Positions 3,787 to 64,000 of a stretch of 64,000 nt of DNA are shown piece after piece. How positions within the stretch are numbered: the stretch's first letter is position 1; the number at the start of each line of letters is the position of its first letter. The DNA lies in assembly GCF_000026545.1 (NCBI RefSeq), contig NC_011601.1; one strand, written 5' to 3'. Both the position numbers and the translations under genes were made by a program. The stretch comes from Escherichia coli O127:H6 str. E2348/69 (lineage in GTDB: Bacteria; Pseudomonadota; Gammaproteobacteria; Enterobacterales; Enterobacteriaceae). The notes beneath the pieces are model-generated. The model ran no database searches. It had not been told where the DNA came from and worked only from the letters and a program-made list of their open reading frames with translations.

Positions 3787-4138
3787 AGTTCTGTGGGTAA
3801 CAAATAATTAACGGTGACAAACAGGTTGCAACAGCAACGAACGGCACCTTAACAATCAACCCAATGAATACAAACGACGAATAAATAGTATTATTAATGA
3901 TTACGATAAGGTCAGAGACTACACAGAAGCGCCTCAATGCCTTTTGTCGATTTAAGGCGACCGGACAAGGCTTCTTCTTAATATATTCATAAATTAAATA
4001 TCATTCACAAAAAAACTCAAACTCATTATTTAAATCAATGTTCATTTTCACACTGATGAAAATACTATCTCATTTATCTTTTATGCCTATATAATCCACC
4101 GCATTATTGTCATTTTATTTTGGATATCCAATTTTTTC
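3787..4138. promoter_or_regulatory. Divergent promoter region between yghO and the FAAL-reductase-ACP-AOS operon
   Basis: 352-bp strongly AT-rich intergenic region with several TATAAT-like hexamers separating divergent genes; no specific operator identified. Confidence 0.4.
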
Positions 4139-11842: not shown

Positions 11843-13191
11843 CAGGATTTCTCTCCGGTTGAGTTATAAAGCAAGGAATGGCGCTGAAAAAATGCCTTTA
11901 AGGTCGGAATTAGCGAGAGCACCACATCCAGACATTGCCCACCGAAGTAAGCAAATGCAGCCCCCAGCACGCCAAACAGATGACAGAACATGAACAGCAA
12001 TACGATGTAGCCGATTGAGGCGATGGTTTGCGCCACGAGAAAAGCGCGCTGTTTTCCCGCCATCAATAGCAATGACTCCTGTGGGAAGCCCAGCATCGAA
12101 ATCACAATTGCGCCCAGCATCACCTGAATCAGGTCATACGCTTCGAGATACTTAACGCCAAACACCAGCGAAATGAGCGGCTTGCCGACGATCAACACCG
12201 CGAGCGCCACCAGAATACCGATTCCGCCCGCCAGTAAACCGGACTTCACGCCTAACAACCACGGTCTGGTGGTGCGTGGATCTAAACGCATCACCTCTGG
12301 ATAAAAACTTTTGCCCAGTAAACCCGCTGGCGTTCCGGCGGCATCGAAGAATGTCATGGCGATTTTAAATAACCCGACAGCAGCGGGTCCTAACACGATC
12401 CCCACCAACACTGTGCTGCACGAGTTACGCGCCGACCAGATGGAGTGGGCAATGTTGGTTGACCAGACAAAACTCCACGCGCCTTTAATGTGTCGGGCAG
12501 ACTCAAACAGATTCAATTTGAAGGCGTTATGGATATTTCTGCGGCGTAATTCGCGCGCGGCAAACCACCAGTACATGGTGCCGCCAACCAGATTCGACAC
12601 GTACCAGGCAATAACAAAACCCGCAAAACCAAAGTCAAAATACCAGGCTACGACGCTCCCCGCTGCGCGCAGAAAAGGTTTCGTCGCCTGCTGTACAGCA
12701 ATCAAATCAAAGCGATCTACCGCACGCAGAATGCCGGTCGGCGTGGAGGAAGCCATTGAAGGAATGAGCGTGCAATAGAGCGCCGCCAGCCAAAAGCTTT
12801 GGTCATCCAGACCTAATGAATGGGAAAGGAATGGCAGTAAGGCAATGCCGCCGACAATCGCCACCGCGCCGCTGACGATATCCAGCGAGAAGGAAAATGA
12901 GACAACATTGCGAAATTGCTGCGGATTATTGTTGGTCAAGGCCGGCGTTCCGTACTGGACCACCAGTTGCCATGTCTGAAACTTAATAAAATCGCTGATC
13001 GATTTGGCGTACGATTGCACAATTACCAGTACGCCAAACATGGCGGGCGTCATCCCTTTACCGGCACACGAGAGCGCCAACAGCCCCAGCAAAGCGCTCA
13101 CAACATTACTGGAGCCTAACCAGGCGCTATTGCGAATAATGGTGCGAAACGCGCCATCTGCAAACCAATGTTTGATGTTTAAACCCGCCAA
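11842..13191 (-). CDS. yghQ: Polysaccharide/lipid flippase-like inner membrane protein (MOP superfamily), full-length YghQ
   Basis: 449-aa polytopic membrane ORF; the K-12 YghQ is remembered as shorter (N-terminally truncated), and this copy appears to be the intact form. Confidence 0.8.
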   Translation of the reverse strand: MAGLNIKHWFADGAFRTIIRNSAWLGSSNVVSALLGLLALSCAGKGMTPAMFGVLVIVQSYAKSISDFIKFQTWQLVVQYGTPALTNNNPQQFRNVVSFSFSLDIVSGAVAIVGGIALLPFLSHSLGLDDQSFWLAALYCTLIPSMASSTPTGILRAVDRFDLIAVQQATKPFLRAAGSVVAWYFDFGFAGFVIAWYVSNLVGGTMYWWFAARELRRRNIHNAFKLNLFESARHIKGAWSFVWSTNIAHSIWSARNSCSTVLVGIVLGPAAVGLFKIAMTFFDAAGTPAGLLGKSFYPEVMRLDPRTTRPWLLGVKSGLLAGGIGILVALAVLIVGKPLISLVFGVKYLEAYDLIQVMLGAIVISMLGFPQESLLLMAGKQRAFLVAQTIASIGYIVLLFMFCHLFGVLGAAFAYFGGQCLDVVLSLIPTLKAFFQRHSLLYNSTGEKS

Positions 13192-49569: not shown

Positions 49570-50874
49570 ATGGAATTTGAATATATCTACCCCGTCTTAA
49601 TTTTATTTGGCAGTTTTGCCGTCATGCTGGCAATAGGTGTGCCAATTACTTTTGCGATTGGTCTTTCTTCGCTGTTATCTATTATTACTGCCTTGCCACC
49701 CGACGCTGCCATTTCTGTTATTTCACAAAAAATGACTGTAGGGCTGGATGGCTTTACGCTATTAGCCATTCCCTTCTTCGTGTTAGCCGGAAACATTATG
49801 AATACCGGTGGTATAGCCAGACGACTGGTTAACCTGGCGCAAGCATTAGTTGGGCGTCTTCCTGGCTCACTGGCTCATTGTAATATCCTCGCGAATACAC
49901 TGTTTGGTGCGATTTCAGGTTCAGCCGTTGCGTCAGCCGCAGCGGTAGGTGGGATTATGTCACCACTGCAAGAAAAAGAGGGATATGATCCGGCGTTTTC
50001 AGCAGCGGTTAATATTGCCTCTGCCCCCATTGGCCTGATGATCCCACCGAGCAATGTGTTGATTGTTTATTCCCTCGCCAGTGGCGGGACTTCTGTCGCT
50101 GCGTTGTTCTTAGCTGGATATCTGCCGGGCATCCTCACCGCTGTTGCCTTAATGTTTGTAGCTGCACTTTATGCACGACGTCACCATTACCCAGTGGCCG
50201 AACGCATCAATTACCGTCAGTTTTTACAGGTATTCCGCGAATCAATTCCTAGCCTGATGCTTATTTTTATCATTATTGGCGGTATTATCGCAGGGGTATT
50301 TACGCCCACAGAAGCATCAGCAATAGCGGTAATTTATAGTTTAGCCCTGGCGATGATTTACCGGGAACTCACTCTTAAGAAACTCAATGATATTCTGTTA
50401 GATTCGGTAGTAACCAGTTCAATTGTTCTGTTACTGGTAGGCTGTTCAATGGGAATGTCATGGGCCATGACGAATGCTGATGTTCCTGAGTTGATCAACG
50501 AACTGATTACCCGCGTTTCGGATAACAAATGGGTCATTCTGTTTATTATCAATATCATTCTGTTGATCGTCGGTACCTTTATGGATATCACGCCGGCGAT
50601 CCTGATATTTACACCTATTTTCCTGCCGATCGCCCAGCATCTGGGGATTGATCCGATTCACTTCGGCATCATTATGGTTTTCAACTTAACCATTGGCCTT
50701 TGCACACCACCTGTCGGCACCATTCTGTTTGTGGGGTGCAGCATTGGTAAGGTCAGTATCGACAGGGCAATAAAACCATTACTGCCGATGTTTCTGGCAT
50801 TGTTTGTAGTAATGGCAATTATTTGTTATTTCCCGCAGCTTAGTCTGATGTTGCCAGGATTATTTTCGACCTGA
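49570..50874 (+). CDS. TRAP transporter large permease (DctM family)
   Basis: Start placed at MEFEYIYPVLILFG... with GAGGG ribosome-binding site; about 434-aa polytopic membrane protein. Confidence 0.8.
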   Translation: MEFEYIYPVLILFGSFAVMLAIGVPITFAIGLSSLLSIITALPPDAAISVISQKMTVGLDGFTLLAIPFFVLAGNIMNTGGIARRLVNLAQALVGRLPGSLAHCNILANTLFGAISGSAVASAAAVGGIMSPLQEKEGYDPAFSAAVNIASAPIGLMIPPSNVLIVYSLASGGTSVAALFLAGYLPGILTAVALMFVAALYARRHHYPVAERINYRQFLQVFRESIPSLMLIFIIIGGIIAGVFTPTEASAIAVIYSLALAMIYRELTLKKLNDILLDSVVTSSIVLLLVGCSMGMSWAMTNADVPELINELITRVSDNKWVILFIINIILLIVGTFMDITPAILIFTPIFLPIAQHLGIDPIHFGIIMVFNLTIGLCTPPVGTILFVGCSIGKVSIDRAIKPLLPMFLALFVVMAIICYFPQLSLMLPGLFST

Positions 50875-55799: not shown

Positions 55800-57407
55800 T
55801 CAATGTGCCTTGATATACAACTCTTTGCTGTAGACATAATCCTGGGGATTATGCAGCGGAAAACCGCCAACGTAGGGTTTAAGCAGTTTGATTAACGGCT
55901 GATAGTAGATGGGAATCAGCGGTGCCTGCTGGTTGATGATCACTTCTGCCTGCTGATACAACGCATTACGCTTTGTCGCATCAGTGATCTGCGTGGCCTG
56001 GTTTAGTAAGGCGTCATACTGCGCATTTTTCCAGTGACCGACGTTTTCTTCACTATCGCTTTTGAGCGTGTTCAGAAAGCTGGAGGCATCATTGTACGTC
56101 GCATCCCACGACTGCCGAGACAGCATGAAATCACCGGCTCGTCGGGCATCAAGATAGGTTTTCCACTCCATTGCGCGCAGCGTCACCTGTGCACCCAGCC
56201 ATTTTTTCCATTCGGAAGACAACGCTATCGCGGTCTTTTCATGCAGATCGTACTTGTTGTAGAACAGCTCAAAGCGTAGCGGATGAGAGGCGTCGTATCC
56301 CGTCTGTTTGAGCAAGACTTTTGCCATCGCGACGCGCTCACTCATTGGCTTTTGCAGTTCATCGAACGTCGTCGCGCTAAAGCCTTTTACCTCTGGCGGC
56401 GTCAGCGTGGTTGCGGGCGTTCTCAACCCCAGTACCTTTTGCGCAATAAGCTGTCGATCAACCGTAAGATATAGCGCCCGACGCACCCGCACATCGTTAA
56501 ATGGCGGTTTCTCAAGGTTAAAGTTGTAATATTCGCTGTTCAGACGCGGGATAATTCGTAGCTCGCCAGGCAGTGATTTTTCAATGGCGGGAATTTGCTG
56601 CGCCGGAACCCAGGTGAGATCGACCTCTCCCGCGCGATAGCGGTTATAGCCGGTGACCGAATTATCCAGCGCCAGATACTCAACCTGTTGCAATACTGTA
56701 TGTTGCGCATCGCGGTACTTTGGATTTTTGCGTGCAGTAATCTTTTCGTTAACTACCCATTTATCAAGCACAAAGGCACCGTTGTAAACCATGTTCTCTG
56801 GCTTACTCCAGCTATCGCCATGTTTAGCGATGACATGATGAGGAACCGGGAACAGCGTCGGCCAGGCGAGCATCGTCGTGAACCAAGGAACTGGCTGCTC
56901 AAGCGTAACTTCAAGAGTACGATCATCCGTCGCTTTGACACCCAGCGATGTAACATCTGCTTTACCCGCAACAATAGCCGCGGCATTGTTAATGTGCGCC
57001 TGTGCCAGATAGCCAGCAAAAGGGCTTGCCGTTTTCGGGTCAACCGCGCGCTGCCAGCCGAGGACAAAATCCTCTGCCGTCAGAGGCTGACCGTCTGACC
57101 ACTGCAAACCGCTACGCAGATGGAAAATATAGCGCTTGCCGCCGTCAAGTATCTCCCAGCGTTCAGCCTGAGCGGGCTGCACCTGGCCTTCACCGTCCAT
57201 CCATACCAGACCTTCAAACAGATCCAGCACAATCTGCGCGGCAGTATTCTCCTCTACCTTTTGCGGGTCGAGCGTGCCTGGGTCGCTATGATTGTTGTAA
57301 CGAAAGACTTGTTGCGGGGCGAGCGGTGTGTTGGCGGGAACGTCAGCAGCGTAGAGAGGAGCCGCACTTACCAGGCTGACCAGCCATAATAAATTTCGCG
57401 TATACAT
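55800..57407 (-). CDS. ygiS: Periplasmic solute-binding protein YgiS (oligopeptide/bile-acid-binding family)
   Basis: Start placed at MYTRNLLWLVSLVSAAPLYA (signal peptide), giving 535 aa. Confidence 0.9.
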   Translation of the reverse strand: MYTRNLLWLVSLVSAAPLYAADVPANTPLAPQQVFRYNNHSDPGTLDPQKVEENTAAQIVLDLFEGLVWMDGEGQVQPAQAERWEILDGGKRYIFHLRSGLQWSDGQPLTAEDFVLGWQRAVDPKTASPFAGYLAQAHINNAAAIVAGKADVTSLGVKATDDRTLEVTLEQPVPWFTTMLAWPTLFPVPHHVIAKHGDSWSKPENMVYNGAFVLDKWVVNEKITARKNPKYRDAQHTVLQQVEYLALDNSVTGYNRYRAGEVDLTWVPAQQIPAIEKSLPGELRIIPRLNSEYYNFNLEKPPFNDVRVRRALYLTVDRQLIAQKVLGLRTPATTLTPPEVKGFSATTFDELQKPMSERVAMAKVLLKQTGYDASHPLRFELFYNKYDLHEKTAIALSSEWKKWLGAQVTLRAMEWKTYLDARRAGDFMLSRQSWDATYNDASSFLNTLKSDSEENVGHWKNAQYDALLNQATQITDATKRNALYQQAEVIINQQAPLIPIYYQPLIKLLKPYVGGFPLHNPQDYVYSKELYIKAH

Positions 57408-57515
57408 GGTATTCCTTACCGGAGAAATTATAAGCCCGACAACAATACGCCTGTGGCATTGTTTGCTCAAACTTATCGCGAGTGATTTGGCTCACACTCC
57501 GGTAAAGATTCCCCA

Positions 57516-57998
57516 TCACGCCAACGGCACATAAATATCCGTTTCCAGTCGCCGCTCTGTCATCCCTTCGGCAAGATTGGTGTAGTGAAACAGGATCGGG
57601 GCTTTGCGCATTTTTTCGCCGCTTGCAGGTAGCCAGTGGCGAATGATGCCCCATATCGTGTGTGAAATATCGTCCAGCTCGCCAACATGGCGGGCAACAG
57701 CATAACGCCCACCGGTAAGTTCGCCATTACTCACGCCATAACGATTATCGGGAACAGGTTCGCTAACGCTGCCGCAGATATCAAAGCGAAACGCTTCCGG
57801 TGCGGTGGTGGCTGGGTCGTCCCAGGCGACGCCAAAAGTCTGGCTTTGGTTAACAGGAGAAAGCCCCGTCTCTTTACGCCACATGATAAATTTCGCCACG
57901 CTGTAGTTGAGCAACTCAGGGCTACAGCGGTGCGGCAACATCGCCACAGGGATTGATGGGAAATCGATAATATTTACATCCAGTGTCAGGTTTGTCAT
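57516..57998 (-). CDS. ygiV: GyrI-like domain transcriptional regulator YgiV
   Basis: 160-aa ORF recognised as YgiV; lies directly after ygiS with no intervening mqsRA. Confidence 0.85.
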   Translation of the reverse strand: MTNLTLDVNIIDFPSIPVAMLPHRCSPELLNYSVAKFIMWRKETGLSPVNQSQTFGVAWDDPATTAPEAFRFDICGSVSEPVPDNRYGVSNGELTGGRYAVARHVGELDDISHTIWGIIRHWLPASGEKMRKAPILFHYTNLAEGMTERRLETDIYVPLA

Positions 57999-58594: not shown

Positions 58595-59254
58595 ATGCGA
58601 ATTTTACTGATAGAAGATGACATGCTGATTGGCGACGGCATCAAAACGGGCCTTAGTAAAATGGGTTTTAGCATCGACTGGTTTACACAAGGTCGTCAGG
58701 GAAAAGAGGCGCTATATAGCGCGCCTTATGATGCGGTGATCCTAGATTTAACCTTACCAGGCATGGATGGTCGCGATATTTTGCGCGAATGGCGAGAAAA
58801 AGGTCAGCGTGAGCCGGTACTGATCCTGACCGCGCGCGATGCGCTGGCGGAACGTGTAGAAGGGCTGCGTCTGGGAGCTGACGATTATCTGTGTAAACCT
58901 TTTGCGTTGATAGAAGTCGCCGCCAGGCTGGAAGCTCTGATGCGCCGAACCAACGGCCAGGCCAGCAACGAGCTGCGCCACGGCAACGTCATGCTCGACC
59001 CCGGCAAACGTATCGCCACGCTGGCTGGCGAACCCTTAACGCTGAAACCAAAAGAATTTGCCCTGCTGGAATTGCTGATGCGTAACGCTGGTCGGGTACT
59101 GCCGCGCAAACTGATTGAAGAGAAACTGTATACCTGGGACGAAGAGGTCACCAGTAATGCCGTTGAAGTGCATGTGCATCATCTGCGACGCAAACTCGGC
59201 AGTGATTTTATTCGTACCGTTCATGGTATTGGCTACACATTAGGTGAGAAATGA
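58595..59254 (+). CDS. qseB: Two-component response regulator QseB (OmpR family)
   Basis: 219-aa ORF with receiver domain (phospho-acceptor Asp in [12 protein letters not shown]) and winged-helix output domain. Confidence 0.95.
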
Positions 59255-60600
59255 AATTTACCCAACGTCTTAGTCTGCGAGTCAGGCTGACGCTAATCTT
59301 TTTAATTCTGGCCTCAGTGACCTGGCTGCTTTCCAGCTTTGTCGCCTGGAAACAAACAACGGATAACGTCGATGAGTTGTTCGACACCCAACTGATGCTG
59401 TTTGCCAAGCGGTTAAGTACGCTCGATCTCAACGAAATCAATGCGGCAGATCGCATGGCACAGACGCCAAATAAATTAAAACACGGTCATGTTGATGACG
59501 ATGCGCTGACCTTTGCCATCTTTACCCACGACGGCAGAATGGTCCTTAACGATGGCGATAACGGAGAAGATATTCCCTATAGCTATCAACGGGAAGGTTT
59601 TGCTAACGGGCAACTGGTCGGTGAAGACGATCCCTGGCGTTTTGTCTGGATGACCTCACCTGATGGCAAATATCGCATCGTTGTTGGTCAGGAATGGGAA
59701 TACCGCGAAGACATGGCGCTGGCGATTGTTGCCAGGCAATTGATCCCGTGGCTTGTCGCACTGCCGATTATGTTAATCATCATGATGGTACTACTGGGTC
59801 GTGAACTCGCGCCGCTGAACAAACTGGCGCTGGCACTACGTATGCGTGACCCTGACTCGGAAAAACCACTAAACGCGACGGGCGTACCCAGCGAAGTGCG
59901 TCCACTGGTTGAGTCGTTGAATCAACTGTTCGCCCGCACACATGCGATGATGGTTCGTGAACGACGCTTTACCTCCGACGCAGCTCACGAACTACGTAGC
60001 CCGTTAACGGCGCTGAAAGTGCAAACCGAAGTTGCGCAGCTCTCTGACGATGATCAGCAGGCGCGGAAAAAAGCGCTGCTTCAATTACATTCCGGAATCG
60101 ATCGCGCTACTCGTCTGGTTGATCAACTGCTCACGCTATCGCGGCTGGACTCACTGGATAACCTTCAGGACGTCGCGGAGATCCCGCTTGAAGATCTCCT
60201 GCAATCGTCGGTGATGGATATTTACCACACGGCGCAGCAGGCGAAAATTGACGTGCGACTGACACTCAATGCCCACGGCATCAAACGTACCGGACAACCG
60301 CTATTGCTAAGTTTGTTGGTGCGAAATTTGCTGGATAACGCCGTGCGCTACAGTCCACAGGGCAGCGTGGTGGACGTCACGCTGAATGCCGATAATTTCA
60401 TCGTGAGGGATAACGGCCCCGGTGTGACACCAGAGGCACTGGCGAGAATTGGCGAACGCTTCTATCGCCCACCCGGACAAACCGCTACCGGCAGTGGACT
60501 TGGGCTATCAATTGTCCAGCGAATCGCCAAGCTGCATGGCATGAATGTTGAGTTTGGGAATGCGGAACAAGGTGGATTTGAGACGAAGGTAAGCTGGTAA
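59251..60600 (+). CDS. qseC: Sensor histidine kinase QseC
   Basis: 449-aa ORF; H-box ([12 protein letters not shown]) and ATPase G-boxes; start overlaps the qseB stop. Confidence 0.95.
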
Positions 60601-60709
60601 GGGTAAGATTTTTGCTAAATTCGCAAAAGACTTTGCACATTTTGCTAATTTCACCGTACCGCTCTGTGACGTACTATAGTCGGCAAACGTCTCACCTTGA
60701 GGTTAAAAA

Positions 60710-61291
60710 ATGAGCAACATCCTGATTATCAACGGCGCGAAAAAATTCGCCCACTCCAATGGTCAACTGAACGACACCCTGACCGAAGTCGCGGATGGCA
60801 CGTTGCGCGACCTCGGGCATGATGTCCGCATCGTTCGCGCCGACAGCGACTACGATGTCAAAGCGGAAGTACAAAACTTTCTCTGGGCTGATGTGGTGAT
60901 CTGGCAGATGCCAGGCTGGTGGATGGGCGCGCCGTGGACAGTGAAAAAATACATTGATGATGTATTCACCGAAGGTCACGGCACGCTGTACGCCAGCGAT
61001 GGTCGTACCCGCAAAGATCCGTCGAAAAAATACGGCTCCGGCGGCCTGGTACAGGGCAAAAAATATATGCTTTCTCTGACCTGGAACGCACCAATGGAAG
61101 CCTTCACCGAAAAAGATCAGTTCTTCCACGGCGTTGGCGTTGACGGTGTGTATCTGCCGTTCCATAAAGCAAACCAATTCCTTGGCATGGAACCGCTGCC
61201 GACATTTATCGCTAATGACGTGATAAAAATGCCTGATGTTCCCCGCTATACTGAAGAATATCGCAAGCATCTTGTGGAAATTTTTGGTTAA
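60710..61291 (+). CDS. mdaB: NADPH:quinone oxidoreductase MdaB
   Basis: 193-aa ORF recognised as MdaB (flavodoxin-like fold). Confidence 0.95.
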   Translation: MSNILIINGAKKFAHSNGQLNDTLTEVADGTLRDLGHDVRIVRADSDYDVKAEVQNFLWADVVIWQMPGWWMGAPWTVKKYIDDVFTEGHGTLYASDGRTRKDPSKKYGSGGLVQGKKYMLSLTWNAPMEAFTEKDQFFHGVGVDGVYLPFHKANQFLGMEPLPTFIANDVIKMPDVPRYTEEYRKHLVEIFG

Positions 61292-61321: not shown

Positions 61322-61636
61322 ATGCTTACCGTAATCGCAGAAATCCGTACTCGTCCTGGTCAACATCACCGTCAGGCGGTATTGGATCAGTTTGCTAAAA
61401 TCGTTCCAACCGTACTGAAAGAAGAAGGTTGCCACGGCTATGCGCCAATGGTGGATTGCGCTGCTGGCGTGAGTTTCCAGTCTATGGCACCGGATTCTAT
61501 CGTGATGATTGAGCAGTGGGAAAGCATCGCGCATCTTGAAGCGCATCTGCAAACCCCGCACATGAAGGCGTACAGCGAAGCCGTAAAAGGTGACGTGCTG
61601 GAGATGAATATTCGTATCCTGCAGCCGGGGCTTTGA
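61322..61636 (+). CDS. ygiN: Quinol monooxygenase YgiN (ABM domain)
   Basis: 104-aa ORF recognised as YgiN. Confidence 0.9.
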   Translation: MLTVIAEIRTRPGQHHRQAVLDQFAKIVPTVLKEEGCHGYAPMVDCAAGVSFQSMAPDSIVMIEQWESIAHLEAHLQTPHMKAYSEAVKGDVLEMNIRILQPGL

Positions 61637-61680: not shown

Positions 61681-62568
61681 TTAGCCATTCTTTCTTCCCG
61701 TTTTCAGTCCTCGATGGAAATCGTTAATTCGCTTAATGGTTTTAACCGCACGCTGCGGCACTGCGGAAGCTACCGACCAGACAATCATTTCCAGACACAA
61801 CAATACCGTACCATGTAGCGGCGTTTTCCCTTTTTCATCCCCGCGCGGAACATGAATCACGATACTGGCGTCTTTGCTAAAACGTGAATCCAGCGCGTTT
61901 GTCAGCAAAATAACAGGGATCCCCAGCCGCCTCGCCTCACGAAGCGTTGTCAGCCCTTCCCGGTGCGCAGATTTTTGCGCCATCATGATCAGAACATCGC
62001 CACGTTGAAGCGCGATCAGTTGCTCGGCAAGGCCAATACCCGTACGGTTTAGTGCCGTGGCAGGCAAACCTATGCGGTTGAATAGTCGTGCGGTATAGTC
62101 CGCCAGGATACCCGAAGCGCCAATGCCAAAAATAGCGACTTGCCGTGCCTGCACCAACAACGCTACAGCTTGCGCAAGCGCGTGGCGGTTTTCAGGCTCT
62201 GACAGGACATTACAGGTATACAAATGCCCTTCAAGAACAAAGTCGATTGCGGTGTTAACATCGCTCGTCAAGTTACTCACCGTCGTAGACATCTTTTCGC
62301 TGGAACTAAGGGCTGGACCAAGCCACTGTTCCAGAGTGCGTTTCAGATCACGCAGCCCGGCAAACCCCAGGGCCTGTATAGCCCTGATAACTGTGGCATC
62401 GGAAGTGTTCAACGTGGCCGCAATTTCCATCGCCGTTTGCTCGAGTACCACTTCACGATGCTCATTAATGTAGCTGGCGACAGCTCTTAACCCAGGCGTT
62501 AACTGACTCGCGCGAGTGCGAAAACGCTCACCAAAAATATCAACCCGCGCTTTATCTTTCTGGATCAT
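61681..62568 (-). CDS. RpiR/MurR-family transcriptional regulator (HTH + SIS domain)
   Basis: 295-aa ORF with N-terminal HTH_6-type region and C-terminal sugar-isomerase (SIS)-like phosphosugar-binding domain; accessory relative to K-12 as I remember it. Confidence 0.7.
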   Translation of the reverse strand: MIQKDKARVDIFGERFRTRASQLTPGLRAVASYINEHREVVLEQTAMEIAATLNTSDATVIRAIQALGFAGLRDLKRTLEQWLGPALSSSEKMSTTVSNLTSDVNTAIDFVLEGHLYTCNVLSEPENRHALAQAVALLVQARQVAIFGIGASGILADYTARLFNRIGLPATALNRTGIGLAEQLIALQRGDVLIMMAQKSAHREGLTTLREARRLGIPVILLTNALDSRFSKDASIVIHVPRGDEKGKTPLHGTVLLCLEMIVWSVASAVPQRAVKTIKRINDFHRGLKTGRKNG

Positions 62569-63512
62569 TTAGCCTCCGGTAGAGGTCGCCCTGCAATTTG
62601 TGATTGTATCTGCGCAGCCATCAGCCCCAGTGATGCAAAGGAGTTAGAAATTGCCTCTTCACGAGAAATCAGCACATAACGCCCGGAACGACAGGCAGTC
62701 AGAAACTGACACCATCCCGGCATGACTTTTTCCATTGCTGCCAGCTCATCCTGAGGTTTACCACCGGTGTCACCGCGCCAGGTTGCAAAAACAAAATCGG
62801 CATCCAGTTCAGGTAAACGCTCCGCGCTCACATCCATTCGCCCACCTTCAGGAATGCTCTCAATCAGCGGCGGAAAACGAAAACCAGCATCGCGTAATAC
62901 CCGCCCCAGCGAATGATAGCTATGCATCACATTAATTTTTCCCTGGTTTGCCTGAATCACCGATACCGTTATTTTTTGGCTGTCCAGCGTCGCCTTCAGC
63001 GCATTGATTTGTGCCTGATAGCGGCGTTCAAGTATCGCCAGCTGCGACTGCGTTCCTGTAAGTTCTGCCAGCTTGCGATAGATTTCTGGCGCGCCCCCTT
63101 TGAGATGATCAATGCTCACCGTGGGCGCAATTTTTTCAAGTTGTTCAATGGGCGTATTACGGGTCGGTTCTGTGATGATCAAGTCAGGCTTTGCCGCCAC
63201 AATCGCTTCAATATCAATATCAGCGGTACCAATAAAGGCGATCGATGAATTATCAAAGTCGACACCTGTCAATAACGCGCCAGATCGAATGAAATGGCTA
63301 CCGTCAGGCCGAGTTCGCCCGTGGCTGGCGACAGGAGGTACACCGAGCTCAATCAGAGGAATAGTGATATCAAGATCGTGTAAAGAGACAATTCTCTTTG
63401 GATGAGCAGGAACAGTGACTTTGCGCCCTAAATCATCAGTAAATACCTGAACAGGTTCTGTTGCACGGGAAAAAAATGACAACAGTATCAGCAGAGAAAA
63501 AAATAAACGCAT
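62565..63512 (-). CDS. ABC transporter periplasmic binding protein (class III, iron-siderophore/hemin/B12 type)
   Basis: Start placed at MRLFFSLLILLSFFSRA (signal peptide); overall resemblance to FecB/BtuF-type binding proteins; adjacent to a FecCD-type permease. Confidence 0.65.
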   Translation of the reverse strand: MRLFFSLLILLSFFSRATEPVQVFTDDLGRKVTVPAHPKRIVSLHDLDITIPLIELGVPPVASHGRTRPDGSHFIRSGALLTGVDFDNSSIAFIGTADIDIEAIVAAKPDLIITEPTRNTPIEQLEKIAPTVSIDHLKGGAPEIYRKLAELTGTQSQLAILERRYQAQINALKATLDSQKITVSVIQANQGKINVMHSYHSLGRVLRDAGFRFPPLIESIPEGGRMDVSAERLPELDADFVFATWRGDTGGKPQDELAAMEKVMPGWCQFLTACRSGRYVLISREEAISNSFASLGLMAAQIQSQIAGRPLPEAK

Positions 63513-63522
63513 ATAACTCCCG

Positions 63523-64000
63523 TTAAAAACTGTTCCTGCGCTGCCAGAGCAGTAGCAAAAAAAATGGTCCACCAATCAGTGAGATAATGATTCCGGCAGG
63601 CAGTTGCAAAGGCAAAAAAGCCAAACGACCAATGCTATCCGCCAGAATAACTAACAACGCCCCCGATACCGCGCTCCCCAGCAGTAATGTCGTCTGCCCG
63701 CCACGTAGAATAAAACGTGATATATGGGGTGCTATCAATCCGACAAAACCGATGTTACCAACACACGAAACGCAGACGGCTGTCAGGATTATGGGTGCGG
63801 CGACACGTAACAACGCCAGACGAGAACTATTCACCCCTAACCCGGTTGCAACCTGATGACCAAGCAGAGCGATATCCGCCGTCCTGGCGGTGAACAGCAA
63901 TAAAAGAGCGGCTGGCAACATCCAACAGGCTGAAATACCGACTAACATCCAGTTAGCTGCATGCAGGCTTCCCGATAACCACATCAATGCAGTTTGTACA
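63523..64000 (-). CDS. ABC transporter permease, FecCD family (C-terminal part; gene continues beyond window end)
   Basis: Hydrophobic ORF with FecCD/BtuC-like C-terminal segment (…GGPFFLLLLWQRR); N-terminus lies outside the window. Confidence 0.65.
   Translation of the reverse strand, partial: VQTALMWLSGSLHAANWMLVGISACWMLPAALLLLFTARTADIALLGHQVATGLGVNSSRLALLRVAAPIILTAVCVSCVGNIGFVGLIAPHISRFILRGGQTTLLLGSAVSGALLVILADSIGRLAFLPLQLPAGIIISLIGGPFFLLLLWQRRNSF

Follow-up and report, generated by a model that had tools for sequence, protein, structure and literature searches.

The empty qseC-mdaB spacer of Escherichia coli E2348/69 as a probable ancestral-type site for a predicted effector/immunity islet

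The qseC-mdaB interval of E2348/69

The stretch of DNA analyzed here (termed the window) spans 64 kb and matches the minus strand of the finished E. coli E2348/69 chromosome (NZ_CP059840.2) at 100% identity. It contains the sensor kinase gene qseC followed by the quinone-related genes mdaB and ygiN, which are co-oriented with each other (Table 1). The QseC protein encoded by the window shares 99% amino acid identity with that of K-12. A reading made earlier from the sequence alone (termed here the sequence-only reading) had placed qseC and mdaB directly next to each other with a gap that lacks a gene, and on this both the coordinates and RefSeq agree: the annotation of the identical E2348/69 record has no feature within the qseC-mdaB gap, and the only mechanically predicted open reading frames (ORFs) that touch it are one of 33 aa with a TTG start (60612..60713) and two on the antisense strand that enter qseC. 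These are not credible as genes because the underlying sequence varies freely between genera.

In K-12 MG1655 the corresponding interval is 696 bp long, versus 109 bp in the window--a difference of 587 bp--and it holds ygiZ (b3027), a minus-strand gene of 110 codons annotated as 'DUF2645 inner membrane protein'. The gene order that the sequence-only reading gave for K-12 was therefore correct, and the indel relative to K-12, which is seen both by alignment and by comparison of the junctions, is real. (The qseC-mdaB junctions were compared by hand and by script; a global MAFFT alignment of the window with K-12 had the left flank misplaced.) A tblastn search of the 64-kb window with K-12 YgiZ yielded no match (best E = 5.2), which bears out the absence of ygiZ from the qseC-mdaB site.

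Table 1. Coordinates of features at and near the qseC-mdaB spacer (window positions)
Feature	Position	Strand	Remarks
qseC (sensor kinase, 449 aa)	59251..60600	+	ORF list and RefSeq; stop codon TAA at 60598-60600
qseC-mdaB spacer, empty (unoccupied) allele	60601..60709		109 bp
Non-conserved 9-bp linker GGGTAAGAT	60601..60609		Between the qseC stop and the palindrome; islet insertion position in other strains
Palindrome TTTTGC-N7-GCAAAA	60610..60628		Alignment of 17 spacers
Conserved 29-nt core GCAAAAGACTTTGCACATTTTGCTAATTT	60623..60651	+	Alignment of 17 spacers
Candidate -10 TACTAT	60672..60677	+	TAnnAT (GTAnnAT column block) conserved across genera; no consensus -35
mdaB (NADPH:quinone oxidoreductase, 193 aa)	60710..61291	+	ORF list and RefSeq
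ygiN (quinol monooxygenase)	61322..61636	+	Co-oriented with mdaB
RpiR/MurR regulator	61681..62568		Iron-uptake island
Iron-siderophore binding protein	62565..63512		Iron-uptake island

Alignment of 17 spacers reveals two conserved elements between the linker and the candidate -10 hexamer. The first is a palindrome whose arms (TTGC-N7-GCAA) are intact in 15 of 17 sequences, one arm being substituted in S. arizonae and in Kluyvera, and whose loop varies; it may be a protein-binding site or a weak hairpin, and RNA folding of this segment (60610..60628) gives a structure no better than that of shuffled sequences. The second is a core of which bases 1-19 (60623-60641) are identical in all 17 sequences and of which the last 10 show scattered substitutions in six. 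This core is a probable activator-binding region of the mdaB-ygiN promoter, and it is judged to be regulatory because it is conserved across the aligned genera rather than because it matches a marbox pattern: a marbox-like sequence at 60632-60650 has two mismatches to AYnGCACnnWnnRYYAAAYn, and such matches are not enriched in the window (11 found versus 18 expected). The mdaB gene has been cited as a member of the mar regulon (PMC2989944). Three TTTGC repeats lie within 60610-60651, for which the candidate regulators are MarA/SoxS/Rob, QseB/PreA or another protein.

A simple sigma-70 scan of the spacer found no full promoter, which would fit an activator-dependent one. Within 60601-60709 there is no terminator-like site (fold z-scores of -0.4 to -0.9), and Rfam covariance models run against 60300-61000 gave no match at E <= 1; the spacer was therefore rejected as a terminator, an sRNA or a known RNA, there being no unusual fold either.

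Three alleles and the ancestral state of the site

To place the window and K-12 within a broader comparison, mdaB neighborhoods were taken from 80 species-representative Enterobacteriaceae genomes, and QseC, MdaB, YgiN, YgiZ, Hcp and X (a protein encoded between hcp and ygiZ, described below) were located in each. Nothing is inserted between qseC and mdaB in 77 of the 80, which include Citrobacter, Salmonella, Klebsiella, Enterobacter, Kluyvera, Leclercia and Raoultella; 74 combine an intact qseC with a spacer of 102-112 bp, and the other insert-free representatives comprise one with a 144-bp spacer and two with a disrupted qseC and a normal spacer. A spacer of exactly 109 bp is found in E. 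albertii, in Escherichia sp. MOD1-EC7003 and in a record labelled E. coli SCPM-O-B-8794. The remaining three representatives carry an insert, always at the same position: in E. whittamii it consists, as in K-12, of ygiZ alone, and in Citrobacter werkmanii and a Pseudocitrobacter metagenome-assembled genome (MAG) it consists of hcp-X-ygiZ. The inserted DNA has a GC content of 34%, versus 51% for the window. Because 77 of the 80 representatives are insert-free and the insert is so AT-rich, the compact spacer is the ancestral-type state and K-12 the derived one, carrying a horizontally acquired islet. Hence one part of the sequence-only reading stands, namely that the window lacks a gene that K-12 has, whereas its implication that the window is the deviant sequence does not: it is K-12 that has an insertion, and a gene that is missing by comparison with K-12 should not be taken to have been deleted.

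Three records in this comparison call for separate mention. In Leclercia adecarboxylata NCTC13032 and Kluyvera genomosp. 3 YDC799 the QseC alignment stops at residue 371 and residue 251, respectively, at in-frame stop codons; both have qseC-like sequence further downstream and a normal spacer, and thus contain either qseC pseudogenes or sequencing frameshifts. Contig CACSKA010000008.1, which is labelled Chryseobacterium sp. 18061, has a typical enterobacterial qseC-mdaB-ygiN arrangement (its MdaB and QseC are 89% and 67% identical to those of E. coli); this assembly is probably contaminated or mislabelled.

The boundaries of the islet were defined by comparing the junctions of the window, K-12, AR_0013, E. 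whittamii, C. werkmanii and Pseudocitrobacter. On its left the islet abuts the qseC stop codon, and on its right it is followed by TTTTGCTAAATTC (window position 60610). The linker that occupies this position in the window has its counterpart in O157 (GGGTAAGAC), and empty-allele linkers are of a type, nGGTAAGAy, that is common to the outgroups, which share with the window the spacer length, the linker type and the lack of any scar. The ends of the islet show neither convincing direct repeats nor a convincing target-site duplication, there being merely a short, imperfect similarity to the 3' end of qseC. In Escherichia sp. MOD1-EC7003 (locus 3889-3897) the qseC stop codon is changed from TAA to TCA, so that QseC is extended by two codons to an in-frame TAA within the linker. 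The right end of the islet (…GGTGAG TCAGAGTAAGA TCAGAC) resembles this MOD1-type qseC terminus, a likeness that hints that the islet may first have entered, or have been exchanged through, a qseC allele of that type.

Within E. coli the site occurs in three states. The empty allele, as in the window and in O157, was counted among 5,426 complete genomes by a contiguous match to a 140-nt junction query, which is too short to bridge the 587-bp insert, and it was found in 824 of them (15.2%). The full hcp-X-ygiZ allele is carried by 1,262 genomes (23.3%) and the ygiZ-alone allele by about 3,340 (about 62%), with ygiZ DNA being present in 4,600 genomes in total. YgiZ is also listed among strain-variable genes in a published comparison of a strain pair (PMC5807354). 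Considering that the 824 empty and 4,600 ygiZ-positive genomes are to be set against 5,425 genomes having the locus, ygiZ is probably not kept elsewhere in strains with an empty site, E2348/69 included, as these totals indirectly indicate.

The full cassette is about 1.7 kb long; in AR_0013, for example, qseC and mdaB are 1,826 bp apart, and hcp, X and ygiZ are all encoded on the minus strand. The ygiZ-only allele differs from it by having 163 bp that are unique to K-12 in place of 1,293 bp. This segment, which lies upstream of ygiZ, contains no remnant of hcp or X, and the ygiZ-only allele is thus ruled out as a simple, one-step internal deletion of the full cassette. E. whittamii carries the K-12-specific segment too, at about 85% identity, which argues that the islet is old in this clade. 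In ST131 and ATCC 11775, which are taken here to belong to phylogroup B2, the match to ygiZ is limited to bases 1-311, and this is the pattern seen in three cross-checked genomes that carry hcp-X. In view of both the ygiZ pattern of these B2 strains and the upstream segment of E. whittamii, the three alleles look either old or freely exchanged. Among ygiZ-only strains, the region upstream of ygiZ exists in at least two unrelated versions (K-12 locus 12191-12353 and EC21Z-147 locus 1079-1300, with inserts of 587 versus 626 bp), neither of which has a remnant of hcp or X.

An apparent age of this kind raises the possibility that the E2348/69 lineage once had the islet and lost it secondarily, through a deletion or, as is more plausible, because homologous recombination replaced it with the empty allele of another strain. 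Such a loss would accord with the presence of ygiZ in E. whittamii and in 85% of complete E. coli genomes, with the hcp-X-like ygiZ pattern of the presumed B2 strains, and with the sharing of the 163-bp segment between K-12 and E. whittamii; against it, the empty allele has the exact outgroup architecture, both in its length of 109 bp and in its nGGTAAGAy linker. The form of loss that involves a simple deletion can be addressed more directly. The window linker contains no islet remnant or scar, and recombination between the short GTAA repeats found at either end of the islet would give GATCAGAC, which is not seen, rather than the actual GGGTAAGAT; together with the outgroup type of the linker, this excludes the window allele as a simple deletion derivative. 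Secondary loss by allelic replacement is possible but less likely than not; in the present data such a replacement and vertical retention of the empty allele would look alike.

Several other differences between strains lie close by. Between ygiS (55800..57407, minus strand) and ygiV (57516..57998, minus strand) the window has 108 bp (57408-57515), where K-12 has about 1 kb containing the mqsR-mqsA toxin-antitoxin pair; neither MqsR nor MqsA has a tblastn match in the window. With mqsRA and ygiZ both missing, two accessory islets that flank qseBC are absent from E2348/69. From about 49570-50874 (E2348/69 record 738180-739484 onward), TRAP-transporter genes (for the large and small permeases and a binding protein) adjoin ftsP at the position where K-12 has ygiQ, and these may be another strain-specific insertion. 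In addition, ygiN and parE, which follow each other directly in K-12, are separated by an iron-uptake island of about 7 kb (window 61681-64000 and beyond); besides the genes in Table 1, this island encodes FecCD permeases, an ATPase and a TonB-dependent receptor. This RpiR/iron-uptake island occurs in O157 and in 1,870 of the 5,426 complete E. coli genomes. A tie between the island and the empty allele was considered and rejected, since 1,870 genomes with the island versus 824 with the empty allele leave no 1:1 linkage.

Control of mdaB with and without the islet

The sequence-only reading had raised the prospect that the indel affects regulation close to qseBC. In its most specific form, this explanation holds that the lack of ygiZ alters local regulation either by allowing qseBC transcripts to read through into mdaB-ygiN or by removing divergent-promoter or H-NS effects on mdaB. 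What speaks for it is, first, a structural difference: the K-12 islet opens with a strong terminator-like hairpin directly 3' of qseC (dG -21.3 kcal/mol, z -4.9), which the window does not have and which, as far as folding predictions go, appears to be the sole structural difference relevant to transcription. Because the window spacer is free of terminator-like structure, read-through from qseC into mdaB is conceivable in empty-site strains. Second, in K-12 the AT-rich ygiZ promoter region abuts the mdaB promoter, and ygiZ is activated there by BglJ-RcsB, which has been described as a regulator that counteracts H-NS silencing (PMC3950696); such control would fit foreign DNA.

Other observations speak against it. 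Over the 100 nt upstream of the mdaB start codon, the window, K-12 and AR_0013, which represent all three alleles, do not differ by a single base, which implies that the polymorphism leaves the mdaB-ygiN promoter region untouched and makes a promoter-level effect of islet absence unlikely. Moreover, the compact layout is the norm, being found in 77 of 80 species. A natural point of comparison is the Salmonella preB(qseC)-mdaB-ygiN locus (Merighi et al. 2009, PMC2653508), which has the same gene order, a 106-bp spacer without ygiZ and a conserved core: there preB and mdaB are not co-transcribed, and mdaB-ygiN forms its own operon, activated by PreA (QseB) (PMC2653508). This locus belongs to another genus, and its transcript mapping pertains to Salmonella rather than to E2348/69. 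A meaningful regulatory consequence of the missing islet is, on balance, unlikely, and the suggestion of the sequence-only reading gains little from these comparisons. The islet lands outside the conserved mdaB control region, and for that reason its absence leaves the mdaB-ygiN promoter as it is.

A predicted effector/immunity cassette

The product of the gene between hcp and ygiZ, X, is a protein of 236 aa that RefSeq designates a 'hypothetical protein' and whose close homologues are confined to Enterobacterales. Searches of Pfam, NCBIfam and, with the single sequence, of the PDB gave no match for E. coli X, and Pfam and NCBIfam searches with X and 25 close homologues gave none above threshold. 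An exhaustive profile search retrieved 374 representative clusters and provided a 70-sequence alignment, in which E82, G85, S112 and Q119 do not vary and Y188, N189 and G191 hardly do. These residues correspond to the pattern ES / G-x-x-x-Q / YNxG that lytic transglycosylases show. An AlphaFold model of X based on the 70-sequence alignment has a pLDDT of 94.4 (an earlier model based on the 25 close homologues, with a pLDDT of 59 and meaningless Foldseek matches, was discarded). Foldseek places Tse3 at the top of the matches to this model, with moderate TM-scores of 0.45-0.55, and the only coherent matches of the X profile to PDB sequences are to Tse3 and MltE, which are weak (E 0.04-0.15) and align the catalytic Glu. 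The Pfam family SLT (PF01464) is passed by a single distant homologue, P0235 (22.6 versus 21.3 bits), E. coli X itself being below threshold. Taken together, the model and the conserved residues assign to X a predicted lysozyme/lytic-transglycosylase (GH23-type) fold, nearest to that of the T6SS muramidase Tse3.

The genomic contexts of X are consistent with a delivered toxin. Directly upstream of X lies hcp in eight contexts: one in E. coli, two in other genera at qseC-mdaB and five at loci elsewhere. The contexts retrieved from elsewhere have Hcp (159 aa), then X (236-246 aa), then a co-directional gene of about 110 aa. They include a Pectobacterium chromosome, where the genes lie between pagP and eamA, a 75-kb Serratia plasmid that also bears conjugative-transfer genes, and a Chania island adjoining integrase and IS genes, in each of which the downstream gene belongs to Pfam DUF2645, and a locus adjoining thiamine-type ABC transporter genes, where the downstream gene has no Pfam hit and weak similarity to YgiZ. 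In longer proteins the X domain is found C-terminal to PAAR, to RHS repeats or to eCIS-core (DUF4157) sequences. X is thus tied to Hcp, PAAR and RHS, in each case outside the window. Fusions to eCIS-core/DUF4157 are frequent (proteins P0170, P0238, P0245, P0250 and P0259), which indicates that the toxin module is apparently used by extracellular contractile injection systems besides the T6SS.

The small gene downstream is equally consistent in its placement. A co-directional small gene follows X in nine of nine contexts, often with overlapping stop and start codons, and in eight of these it is DUF2645-positive, either by Pfam or by tblastn to YgiZ; in the ninth it encodes a 109-aa membrane protein with weak similarity to YgiZ. 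Among the eight is a PAAR-X fusion with a DUF2645 gene immediately 3', which means that the small gene goes with the toxin domain and not with the delivery module; judging from gene order, this would be the classical signature of an immunity gene. YgiZ itself has three hydrophobic segments and is positively charged both at its N-terminus and in the loop between TM2 and TM3; residues 29-55 form a conserved acidic loop that is predicted to face the periplasm, which is where a peptidoglycan hydrolase would act. Between genera, YgiZ diverges faster than X and Hcp do. Faster divergence is usual for immunity proteins.

One could suppose instead that ygiZ is an ordinary housekeeping gene for a membrane protein, unrelated to the T6SS, and that its adjacency to hcp-X is incidental. 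Screens for solvent tolerance, among others, have picked up the gene, and the membrane topology of YgiZ is unlike that of known Tgi-type immunity proteins. Yet a YgiZ-like gene follows X in nine contexts, including the plasmid and the PAAR-X fusion, and the DUF2645 family has few members, is restricted to Enterobacterales and is lacking in most species; incidental adjacency is quite improbable. Finally, there is a negligible chance that ygiZ was collapsed out of the sequence as an assembly or sampling artefact, given the window's identity to a finished chromosome and the recurrence of the same junction in 824 independent complete genomes. Because the X domain also turns up in fusions with PAAR, Rhs and eCIS modules, and a YgiZ-like gene comes after it in all nine contexts examined, ygiZ is probably an orphan T6SS immunity gene.

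Comparison with known systems indicates where the predicted cassette would resemble them and where it differs. In its presumed mode of working it is likened to Tse3-Tsi3 (Tge1-Tgi1), the T6SS muramidase pair of Pseudomonas aeruginosa, of which it is not a member by sequence: X and Tse3 share 13-15% identity, X has 236 aa versus about 400 for Tse3 and, unlike Tse3, is linked to Hcp, PAAR or Rhs; no part of the hcp-X-ygiZ cassette lies in the window. The immunity proteins known for T6SS muramidases, Tsi3 among them, are (lipo)proteins of the periplasm, whereas the putative immunity protein YgiZ is a polytopic membrane protein with three transmembrane segments. Similarly, E. coli X falls below any Pfam or NCBIfam threshold that would place it among the Family-1 lytic transglycosylases (MltE and Slt70; Pfam SLT PF01464). 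The concept of orphan immunity genes that persist after the loss of a toxin is established for T6SS, CDI and Rhs systems. That about 62% of E. coli have ygiZ but no hcp-X is as expected for an antidote kept against neighbors in which the toxin persists; the ygiZ-only allele differs from such cases by having its own 163-bp upstream segment and promoter, and its protective role is a prediction. The Hcp-linked cargo (Hcp-ET) islands of Enterobacteriaceae likewise have an hcp gene outside of the main T6SS cluster, followed by toxin and immunity genes, and are AT-rich; in one of these, hcp2B-xmtU/xmtV, repression by H-NS has been demonstrated (PMC5874247). In Hcp-ET islands, however, the toxin is a C-terminal extension of Hcp with a nuclease or peptidase domain, whereas X is a separate, lysozyme-like protein. 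In the searchable literature, i.e., that outside of subscription, no description was found of the hcp-X-ygiZ cassette, of DUF2645 or of PF10840, and what is reported on ygiZ concerns BglJ-RcsB regulation, solvent tolerance and lists of strain-variable genes.

The explanation proposed here, which is held with considerable confidence, is that the window spacer is an unoccupied allele of ancestral type, that the islet found elsewhere is an hcp-X-ygiZ effector/immunity cassette or its ygiZ-only form, and that the mdaB promoter is the same in either case. From this perspective, most other E. coli would have acquired an AT-rich islet within the 9-bp linker after the qseC stop codon, either as the complete hcp-X-ygiZ cassette or in the reduced form retaining ygiZ alone that K-12 has; X would be a T6SS effector that degrades peptidoglycan and is loaded through Hcp; and YgiZ (DUF2645), as a three-helix inner-membrane protein, would be its cognate immunity protein. 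The ygiZ gene of K-12 would thus be an orphan immunity gene, and E2348/69 would have neither toxin nor antidote.

For the window itself, this amounts to a common, scar-free difference in gene content with the mdaB control region intact--an ordinary polymorphism that matters little. A broader proposal, which seems rather more plausible than not, is that YgiZ is the immunity protein of an undescribed family of lysozyme-fold T6SS/eCIS effectors and that a toxin/antidote/empty polymorphism is maintained at qseC-mdaB, in which empty strains can be killed and ygiZ-only strains are protected. If this is true, then strains with an empty site, such as the enteropathogenic E. coli (EPEC) strain E2348/69 and O157:H7, which have neither the toxin nor the antidote, would be expected to be susceptible to contact-dependent killing by those E. 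coli, roughly 23%, that have hcp-X together with ygiZ, and the 62% that carry ygiZ alone, K-12 among them, would be protected. The comparison thereby offers a testable function for the orphan y-gene ygiZ.
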